A stretch of DNA of 64,000 nucleotides from contig OZ271854.1 of NCBI GenBank assembly GCA_965601925.1, positions 96,001-160,000 of the forward strand, written 5' to 3'. A program made the translations under genes and the position numbers. The notes below the pieces were generated by a model. That model was not told the DNA's origin. It made no database searches and saw only the letters and a list, made by a program, of their open reading frames with translations. Within the stretch, counting starts at the first letter, position 1; every line of letters begins with the position of its first letter. The stretch comes from Alkalispirochaeta sp. (GTDB lineage Bacteria; Spirochaetota; Spirochaetia; DSM-27196; Alkalispirochaetaceae). This document shows positions 61,336 to 62,902 of the stretch, in pieces.

Positions 61336-62295
61336 CTACCCCGCCGTTACCTTCGTCTGACCGGCGCGCTGAACGAACACCGTGACCGAGAGCGTGCAGC
61401 TGCTGCCGCTTCCCGTTACTCCGGCAATGCCGCCGACGGTCACCTCGTCGCCCTCCCGTATCGGGAGTTTGCCGCCGCTTACGACCTTAGCCGCAGTCGC
61501 CGGGAGGGTCGCATTCGTCGGTGAGGAGGCGACGCACGCTCCGTCGGTGATCCCGGCGGGTATGGTGATCGCCGCGCCGTCCATGTACACACCGCGGCCG
61601 TCCGCCATAAGCGCGGCCGACGGCGCACCGGTAAAGACGGCGGGCGTTCCCGTTACCGGAGCGCGGTAGGCGAGTATTGCCGATGAGGTGGCGATCGCCT
61701 TGGCGTCGGCTCCCGGTCCGCCGGGGGAACCGCCCCCATCGCCGGCGGCCTCGAGAGCACTCCGATACGCGTCAAACACGTTTTGGAACGCCGTCCACTC
61801 ACCGCCGTTGTCTATCATCCACCGCGGACAATCCTTGCCGGTGCAATCGTGGTGGCGGAGTACGCGCTCCCGCTCCGTTATCCCGTTGCGATACAGGATG
61901 TCGGCCGCCAACTCGGCACCGGCGCGGAGCGTCGCCGGATAAAACTCGCCGGTAACGGTGGGATGACACATCTCAACTCCGATCGTGCGCCAGTTAGGCA
62001 GCCCCCCGAGAAGCGTCTCGATCTCGGGAAATGTCTCGTCCGAAGGTCCGGCGTGCCACGCCGTCTCATCCTCGGGAATCATGCGAATGATCTCGCCGTC
62101 TAGCCCCACCACGTAGTGTGCCGACTTGACGCTATCGGGCTCAGTTTGCGGCAATGTGTTGAAGTAGTCTCTAAGCTCCTGCGCATCGGTCCCGGGCCAC
62201 TCGGTCCAATGGACAACCACCCCCCGTAATGCAGGCAGCGCTTGCCCGGAGCGCGTATTGGGATGCACGGTAATCAGATCATCCCGAATCTTCAT
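61336..62295 (-). CDS. N-acetylmuramoyl-L-alanine amidase (Amidase_2) fused to a C-terminal PAAR-like spike-tip domain
   Basis: VVHWT, SAHYVVG.DG, AWHAG, IGVEMC, RHHDCTGKDCP; Gly/Pro linker; ATAAKVVSGGKLPIREGD...AGQTKVTAG tail; the PAAR-like call is inference. Confidence 0.8.
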   Translation of the reverse strand: MKIRDDLITVHPNTRSGQALPALRGVVVHWTEWPGTDAQELRDYFNTLPQTEPDSVKSAHYVVGLDGEIIRMIPEDETAWHAGPSDETFPEIETLLGGLPNWRTIGVEMCHPTVTGEFYPATLRAGAELAADILYRNGITERERVLRHHDCTGKDCPRWMIDNGGEWTAFQNVFDAYRSALEAAGDGGGSPGGPGADAKAIATSSAILAYRAPVTGTPAVFTGAPSAALMADGRGVYMDGAAITIPAGITDGACVASSPTNATLPATAAKVVSGGKLPIREGDEVTVGGIAGVTGSGSSCTLSVTVFVQRAGQTKVTAG

Positions 62296-62347
62296 CGAAC
62301 CGCTCCTTCGCCGGAAGCCGCGGATGCAGTCTCGCAACGCGTCACGG

Positions 62348-62902
62348 TCATTGCAGCACCTCCAAGTTGCCTCCGTTGATCACGACCTTGTTGGAGGTCA
62401 TCTCCATGGTATTGCCGTTGGCGTCCGCAAGAACGATGTCGCCGCTCGCGGTAATCTCGATCGCGGCGCCGTTGTAACGCACGTAGAGCGAGTCCTCGGC
62501 CGGCGGCGGCTCGGGAGCCGAGCGAAAGCTCCACAGTCCCGGTATGCAGATCGCGTCGGTCAGCGCGTGACGGTGACTCGTCTCAGGCTCCACGGCGTCG
62601 GTGCCCTCGAGAAAGGAGCCCAGCGCCGCCTCCGAGAAAATGAGTAAACACCCATCGCCGCGCTGCAGCGGAAAGATGAGCTCCGCCGTACCGCTGGACG
62701 GGAAGACGACCGGCACGTTATCGATCGGTGGTATCTCGATCGCCCCGCCGAATCGTCGCCGCAGGCTCACCAGCGGCTTCACCCGCGCCTTACGCTCGCG
62801 GTGGCCCTCGTAGCTCTCGATGCGGCCGGGGAGCGCGGTATGTACATCCTCGAGGCTCGATAGGACAAAGCTGTTGAGTATCGCCACCGTATCGTCGCTC
62901 AC
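62348..62902 (-). CDS. Baseplate central spike protein (Gp138 N-terminal OB-fold type)
   Basis: HTALPGRIESY, I.NVPV.FP, FPLQRGDGCLLIFSE, RHALTDAICIPG; short C-terminal beta-helix strands. Confidence 0.88.
   Translation of the reverse strand: MSDDTVAILNSFVLSSLEDVHTALPGRIESYEGHRERKARVKPLVSLRRRFGGAIEIPPIDNVPVVFPSSGTAELIFPLQRGDGCLLIFSEAALGSFLEGTDAVEPETSHRHALTDAICIPGLWSFRSAPEPPPAEDSLYVRYNGAAIEITASGDIVLADANGNTMEMTSNKVVINGGNLEVLQ

Follow-up and report, generated by a model that had tools for sequence, protein, structure and literature searches.

The gene at positions 61336..62295 (minus strand) of the window, i.e. the whole 64,000-nucleotide stretch of DNA that was analysed, encodes a protein of 319 aa in which an Amidase_2 domain, a linker and a spike-tip domain with the PAAR/gp5.4 fold are joined in a single frame, and it lies behind the spike gene in an operon with genes for a contractile tail and none for a head. 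The best reading, to which we give about an even chance (roughly 0.5), is that this locus encodes a tailocin-like particle with an enzyme-armed spike tip; expression of the gene, docking on the spike, the uncleaved linker, delivery and benefit are the parts of it that we infer. What counts against this reading is that the fusion was found once, that the amidase family is an endolysin family by context, and that the exit of the particle from the cell is unexplained.

The fusion gene and its two domains

The fusion gene starts with the ATG at 62295 and has a GAAGGAG ribosome-binding site upstream of it at 62303-62309. In the preliminary description it was given the span 61336..62902; the open reading frame is real but extends only up to 62295, its start, and the remainder of that span takes in the spike gene (62348-62902). 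Its placement between the spike and the sheath initiator was correct, as the neighbour behind it codes for a gp25-like wedge/sheath initiator protein of 121 aa (60966..61331, minus strand; PHROG 120, E 6e-21). One contig of run X1 spans the locus over 14,000 bases and one contig of run X3 spans the fusion junction, both with 0 differences from the window, so the fusion is not a consensus error, although the two runs represent one sample, possibly the source of the window itself, and give no independent support.

The Amidase_2 domain occupies residues 1-178 (61762..62295, minus strand). It is complete, with Pfam PF01510 scoring 88 bits over residues 23-158 (the cut-off is 26), and it possesses the His/His/Cys and Glu motif that had been described from the sequence: H29, E108 (in IGVEMC), H148, K154 and C156 all have counterparts in XlyA, an amidase of Bacillus (E 4e-9). 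H29, H148 and C156 are presumably the zinc ligands and E108 the catalytic Glu, and all five residues are kept in four free relatives. Misannotation of the protein as an endolysin had been foreseen, and 16 of its 18 PHROG matches are indeed lysis families. No signal or membrane-anchor stretch and no hydrophobic leader was detected in the enzyme.

Three Amidase_2 genes are found in the genome with Pfam. The other two code for free proteins 55-58% identical to the fused amidase, and homology to free endolysins ends at residue 178, the free copies stopping where the fusion linker begins. One free paralogue lies at the end of the late genes of a siphophage that also has a terminase, a portal and a tape measure, and Rz-like spanin genes come next after both paralogues (E 0.026 and 9e-5). 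The fused amidase is also 35-39% identical to endolysins in the prophages of relatives and in viral contigs, and an amidase 35-36% identical to it is present in two of 40 relatives, both times amid phage-like genes. Judged from these comparisons, the fused amidase is a captured endolysin of the local siphophage family. It shares the catalytic domain and motif with XlyA of PBSX and with the spirochaete siphophage endolysins and differs from free Amidase_2 endolysins in being joined to a tail part and having no spanin genes behind it; its net charge is −12 versus 0 and +1 for the two free paralogues.

Several other phage-derived regions were noticed in the same genome. At G000:C1:4261637-4262763 (L009:11638-12764) an orphan endolysin, an Rz-like gene and an overlapping ORF are neighbours of a fusA-like gene. 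Neither further phage genes nor a holin were seen in this 20-kb locus; the module could be a remnant, or a lysis module serving the tail in trans. At G000:C1:~3695600-3731000 there is a prophage of the siphophage type, in which genes for an integrase-like protein, head, tail and lysis were seen, and at G000:C1:~4898000-4912000 a Mu-like tail region with two baseplate gene sets.

The tip domain covers residues 196-319 (124 aa; 61339..61710, minus strand), with conserved C254, D283, C300 and Q313 and no His. Its AF2 model has a pLDDT of 96.7 and a pTM of 0.88, and the top six VIA rows for this model are all tips with Z values of 7.4-10.9, followed by an unrelated row at 3.1, which bears out the PAAR/gp5.4 fold proposed in the preliminary description. 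These tips are the P1 tip (9VYI chain A; Z 10.9, rmsd 1.9, 93 aligned), T4 gp5.4 (Z 10.9, rmsd 2.1, 96 aligned), PAAR c1882 (Z 10.3), a chain of a T6SS spike complex (8.2), Pvc10 (7.8) and phiKZ gp163.1 (7.4). The five best Foldseek rows are likewise all tips, none of them at E <= 0.001, and the three best matches of the tip-family profile to PDB sequences are of the gp5.4 type (E 0.05-0.09). PHROG 281 matches the domain at E 0.008 only.

A search of 1.84 billion representatives with the tip domain yielded 95 hits, namely the fusion itself, three repeat proteins, which were dropped, and 91 stand-alone proteins of 99-134 aa. In the alignment of the window domain with 90 of the 91 relatives (one truncated protein was omitted) the domain is intact, ranking 47 of 91 by leave-one-out score and keeping 27 of 32 conserved columns, figures that describe a family itself gathered with the window domain as the query. 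The domain is the sole member of its family in the genome. The PAAR motif of PF05488 has no Pfam match in it and matches one of the 91 members at E 0.043; against the whole genome PF05488 found nothing in a search that detected three of 14 controls. The His3Cys metal site is missing, the window domain having no His, as is the case for 67 of the 91 members, and the two Cys columns of the family are conserved at 70% and 68%. DUF4280 PAAR-like proteins are defined by four conserved cysteines (PMC5014421), a pattern absent here: the window domain has two Cys, as do 43 of the 91 members. CIS_spike_tip PF19267 matches one of the 91 members at E 0.038, and one Atlas cluster was matched at 0.90 with a 10% share. 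According to the structural model, the domain is one that should work like a PAAR tip without belonging to PF05488, and, as far as these profile searches tell, the two-cysteine tip family of about 90 representatives is missed by Pfam and unannotated.

Among viral models, the 329-aa BFVD entry A0A2I7RYH4 combines the tip fold (TM 0.56 over the query) with some 200 further residues. These are unlikely to form an Amidase_2 domain, as the entry is absent from the matches of the full-length fusion model, a search in which no viral structure matched both fusion domains.

The two domains are connected by a linker at residues 179-195 (61711..61761, minus strand), consisting of the end of a helix and a Gly/Pro-rich part with pLDDT <50 at 188-195; the linker SALEAAGDGGGSPGGPG and the C-terminal sequence are as described earlier. 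The full-length model (mean pLDDT 76, pTM 0.52), in which the amidase part is weak with two aligned relatives, has two independent domains, a loose linker and no fixed contact between the domains. There is no ATG, GTG or TTG at the ancestral tip start, and the single in-frame GTG, at residue 173, has no clear ribosome site; a free tip is not obviously made from the fusion gene. Since the old start codon is missing, a tip built into a particle should bring the enzyme with it, barring cleavage of the linker. The sequence GGCGG 7 bases ahead of the A196 codon could be a worn ribosome-binding site. A linker-like, Arg-free composition arises from only 23 of 5,651 open GC-rich 54-mers, by a criterion set after the fact.

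The spacer between the spike gene and the fusion gene (62296..62347, minus strand; 52 bp) holds the GAAGGAG site and is the widest of the 15 operon junctions, which fits an insertion at the spike-tip joint, and it is probably a scar of the amidase insertion. A mini-ORF of 19 codons (62292..62351, minus strand) overlaps the spike stop with its start and the amidase start with its stop, with ATGA at both ends; it may couple translation or may be a product of chance. RNA structure at the linker and the spacer is nothing special (z 0.39 and 0.84), and comparison of the spacer and linker DNA with the flanks of the free endolysins gave only short chance matches.

The tail operon, the sister genome and loci with free tips

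The operon runs from G000:C1:165366 to 153048 and includes 16 ORFs. Its first part, at G000:C1:160066-165366 beyond the window, consists of a 93-aa ORF and genes for a terminator (176 aa), sheath (442 aa) and tube (146 aa), two ORFs in the chaperone position, and genes for a tape measure (463 aa) and a tail protein of 192 aa. These are followed, all on the minus strand of the window, by a Pam3 gp18-like plug of 117 aa extending past the window end (63713..64000), the baseplate hub of 275 aa (62899..63726; E217_GP41, PHROG 196), the spike, the fusion, three wedge genes, i.e. the gp25-like gene, a baseplate J-like gene (59515..60966; 483 aa, PHROG 6) and a Mu gp48-like/DUF2612 gene (58951..59493; 180 aa), and a tail fibre of 631 aa (57048..58943). 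The contractile tail gene set, comprising terminator, sheath, tube, chaperone, tape measure, hub, spike, tip, wedges and fibre, is thus complete. The operon is flanked by an Fpg-like gene and, just downstream, a vapBC-like pair coding for an AbrB-type antitoxin and a PIN toxin (window 55139-55770). The genome has three FlaA genes, which we take as a marker of a spirochaete host.

The ORF lists of the locus contain no head or packaging genes, and tblastn of the head, neck and packaging proteins of related phages against the genome returned nothing, which makes the element tailocin-like rather than a phage. Family searches of the genome for capsid, portal and terminase were blank as well but carry no weight, two of them having no detected control and two missing a known terminase; the other prophages of the genome carry their own terminase and portal. 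In the scans run, none of the 16 operon ORFs matched an AAA ATPase or cap family. The amidase is the only lytic gene of the operon, and no holin- or spanin-like ORF was found in the locus, where 10 of 138 ORFs reach a hydropathy of 1.6, four of them structural genes and six short ORFs on the opposite strand, with four control proteins scoring 1.9-2.2. With no holin and no signal or anchor, the fusion enzyme would be unable to reach the wall of the producer by itself.

Some features of the operon ends are recorded here for completeness. The first ORF of 93 aa (L001:13086-13367) matches no family and resembles, faintly (E 0.011), the gene that comes after the capsid gene in locus L037. The leader at G000:C1:165361-165525 is AT-rich (31% GC), no regulator gene was linked to it, and a promoter scan gave 2 sites versus 4.6 expected by chance. 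The N-terminal domain of the fibre is 39% like the fibre of a Mu-like prophage (G000:C1:4902010-4903800), and repeated W..VG motifs in its middle, for which all Atlas hits are under 0.9, suggest a propeller.

The spike of 184 aa (62348..62902, minus strand) matches PF18352 at E 1e-22, a family that we take to be Gp138_N. It is blunt and ends with GGNLEVLQ, and the HxH apex is absent from this end, as had been noted, the sole HxH being located at 110-112 inside the N-terminal domain. Blunt spikes have been proposed to take a tip, and the P2 spike ends up in the periplasm (both PMC12407873), so an amidase on the tip would meet the wall there.

The tip profile hit six genomes out of 401 of the phylum, at seven places besides this genome, one of which is at a contig end; the other six were compared. 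The expected unfused tips are there: in all six spirochaete loci a free tip gene lies directly behind the gene in the spike position, the gap between the two being −4 at four loci and 0 and +4 at the remaining two. Two of these upstream genes match the window spike in BLASTP, and four were assigned from where they lie and how their sequences end. In five other related tails a tip gene is missing and the spikes are longer, at 222-260 aa. The amidase is absent from all 11 compared loci, six with a free tip and five with a long spike. A search of 21 other genomes of the family, many of them incomplete, did not turn up the spike. Pattern scans of viral contigs for the tip gave nothing, there was no match among phage records, and the one match in metagenome locus L030 was rejected as spurious.

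A sister genome, run X5, comes from another study under another organism label, and its contigs are about 90-92% identical to the window element. One of them extends without a break from the wedge genes through tip, linker, amidase and spike into the hub. Over 4,130 bases it differs from the window by 421 substitutions and 10 gap letters; the gaps are explained in full by a compensated pair in a wedge gene and, in a loop near residue 50 of the amidase, an in-frame insertion of net +6. Amidase, linker and tip are collinear in this alignment, with the same length across the linker. The presence of the amidase in the sister means that the insertion is older than this strain. A second X5 contig continues into the Fpg-like gene, indicating the same chromosomal site, and the DNA on the fibre side of the sister element is unlike that of the window. 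In the gp48-like gene 21 of the 31 changes listed are at third codon positions (p 1e-4), or 18 of 26 when the stretch between the indels is left aside; in this wedge gene of one sister genome there are thus signs of purifying selection.

No second fused protein was found: only the fusion itself appeared among 1,484 candidates, the 95 tip hits and 7,999 longer candidates, the last of these sets being a weak one. Such length-limited searches are weak evidence, and a close unfused twin of the tip could be hidden by clustering at 90%. That no second fused protein turned up in the protein collection is mild evidence for a stop in the linker of the sister. The nearest tip relative, P0003, is a stand-alone protein of 123 aa, 61% identical to the window domain and starting at the position of A196, and a spike 90% identical to the window spike, P0102, has provenance figures common to P0003. 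Going by these figures, P0003 probably belongs with the P0102 spike in a third element with an unfused tip. Assignment of P0003 to X5 itself was considered, since the substitution count alone (10.2% versus 7.8% on the next contig) would fit it, and was rejected, as the X5 contig leaves no gap letter for the one-residue gap that P0003 would require; all 10 lie elsewhere.

Preferred and alternative readings of the fusion

In the preferred reading the fusion protein would be the single spike-tip subunit of a headless, R-tailocin-like contractile tail of a spirochaete. The gene of a siphophage endolysin would have been captured by insertion between the spike and tip genes. The PAAR/gp5.4-fold domain would cap the blunt trimeric spike, with the flexible linker tethering one zinc amidase alongside. 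Contraction of the sheath would then drive the spike and tip into the target periplasm, where the amidase may cut the MurNAc-L-Ala bond locally, making passage of the tube easier or helping in killing. A more specific form, a host-kept spirochaete R-tailocin whose monomeric two-cysteine PAAR-fold tip with its captured N-terminal endolysin amidase digests the wall from the needle point and which is released by lysis genes elsewhere in the genome, is put forward more tentatively and with somewhat less than even odds.

Two alternatives are unlikely but deserve weight, and to about the same degree. The amidase may be the endolysin of the operon, with surplus fusion protein cutting the producer wall after the holin of another element has acted and the ride on the tip being incidental or secondary. 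It is the sole lytic gene in the operon and its closest kin are endolysins, with Rz-like genes behind the two copies in the same genome; Pseudomonas R tailocins encode a holin, an endolysin and often spanins (PMC4684702), and the siphophage of this genome, having its own lysis genes, could supply the holin. However, the locus has neither holin nor spanin, two free endolysins of the same family are already available in the genome, and lysis from within needs no fusion to a structural protein present in one copy.

According to the other, neighbouring endolysin and tip genes were joined recently in this strain by accidental loss of a stop and start, with a neutral or harmful outcome, and the locus may be a prophage remnant. 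The fusion is a singleton in the searches, endolysin homology ends at 178 and P0003 begins at A196, with the possible worn ribosome-binding site in front of it, and among 99 genomes of the order, many of them incomplete, this is the only one in which the sheath was found. On the other side, none of the 16 operon ORFs is interrupted and they follow each other closely, the tip domain and the catalytic motif are intact, the sister keeps the linker length and shows the third-position bias in the wedge gene, and GC3 is uniform over the non-fibre genes (0.68-0.81), compared with 30% GC in the nearest viral relative.

Much less probable is a remodelling of the producer's own wall, in which the tail would be fired within the producing cell and the tip amidase would breach that cell's peptidoglycan on the way out, comparable to TagX or SalCis19. 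The locus has no lysis cassette, and SalCis19 has been proposed as a wall remodeller for a membrane-bound injection system (bioRxiv 10.1101/2025.06.01.657177), but the operon has no gene for a membrane anchor or an AAA ATPase, and a tape measure and a long variable fibre are what free tails possess. An ordinary modular endolysin, with the usual layout of catalytic domain, linker and small beta domain (PMC6116005) and a wall-binding C-terminal domain, is largely refuted and highly improbable, given that the domain has the PAAR/gp5.4 fold, its relatives are stand-alone proteins behind spikes, and no wall-binding family matched it.

Comparison with known systems and significance

T4 gp5.4, the P1 tip, PAAR c1882/VCA0105, Pvc10 and phiKZ gp163.1 have the same three-hairpin cone over the whole domain (Z 7.4-10.9), and the fusion is, like them, encoded beside a blunt spike with no HxH at the apex. 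Unlike these tips, the window domain of about 124 aa has no PAAR motif, no His and two Cys instead of His3Cys, and carries an N-terminal enzyme. The gene set of the operon resembles that of E217/Pam3-type tails, and the AAA ATPase/cap genes of PVC/Afp-type eCIS were not matched in it. As in R-type tailocins (R pyocins, diffocins, PBSX-like particles), the operon encodes a complete contractile tail and has no head genes, and in the one sister genome it lies at the same chromosomal site with a different fibre, as would be expected of such an element; it differs from them in its spirochaete host and in that no holin, spanin or regulator was found in the locus.

Neither an N-terminal Amidase_2 domain on the monomeric tip of a headless phage-type tail nor a spirochaete tailocin or headless contractile tail was found described in the titles and abstract openings searched, which covered few subscription papers. 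Tables of PAAR architectures, which may bear on the novelty of the fusion, are reportedly given in Shneider 2013. The preliminary description had called the enzyme on the tip an unusual solution. This holds for the N-terminal Amidase_2 form; wall hydrolases of the lysozyme-like kind are already in print on PAAR tips, which lowers the novelty of the window fusion. In Data Set S2 of PMC8651086 six of six "lysozyme" rows are encoded by the PAAR gene itself and none of the 44 "amidase" rows (Tae4, TseH) is fused to PAAR, in a survey that used preset toxin families, has no Amidase_2 term in its supplements and describes fused toxins as C-terminal. For DUF4280 proteins, lysozyme-like and NlpC/P60 extensions are named in the legend to Fig. 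6 of PMC5014421. The same paper gives N-terminal extensions on PAAR-like proteins, among them that of Francisella IglG, which is a helical adaptor in contrast to the enzyme here. Compared with the PAAR and DUF4280 hydrolase fusions, the window cargo is N-terminal, is an Amidase_2 domain from an endolysin and sits on a phage-type tail with a tape measure.

Other particle-borne wall hydrolases include T4 gp5 on a contractile needle (PMC6116005), the diffocin hub-hydrolase CD1368, which is held on a flexible loop in a headless particle (PMC10996793), and amidase virion lysins reported from Staphylococcus siphophages (PMC5380687). The enzymes of T4 gp5 and CD1368 are glycosidases or endopeptidases, present three times per particle on spike or hub, whereas the fusion would place one amidase on a monomeric tip, and contractile systems that target diderms are often without such an enzyme (PMC10996793).

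If the fusion were an accident of one strain, a headless tail locus and a new tip subfamily would remain, which is a modest finding. If the enzyme-armed tip is real, the tip would join the spike and the hub as a third site at which a contractile tail can bear a wall hydrolase, and the step from endolysin to particle-borne lysin would have been caught with unfused tips, free endolysins and the fusion all open to comparison. The locus would then be a candidate tailocin in spirochaetes and would offer a natural N-terminal enzyme cargo on a PAAR-fold tip.
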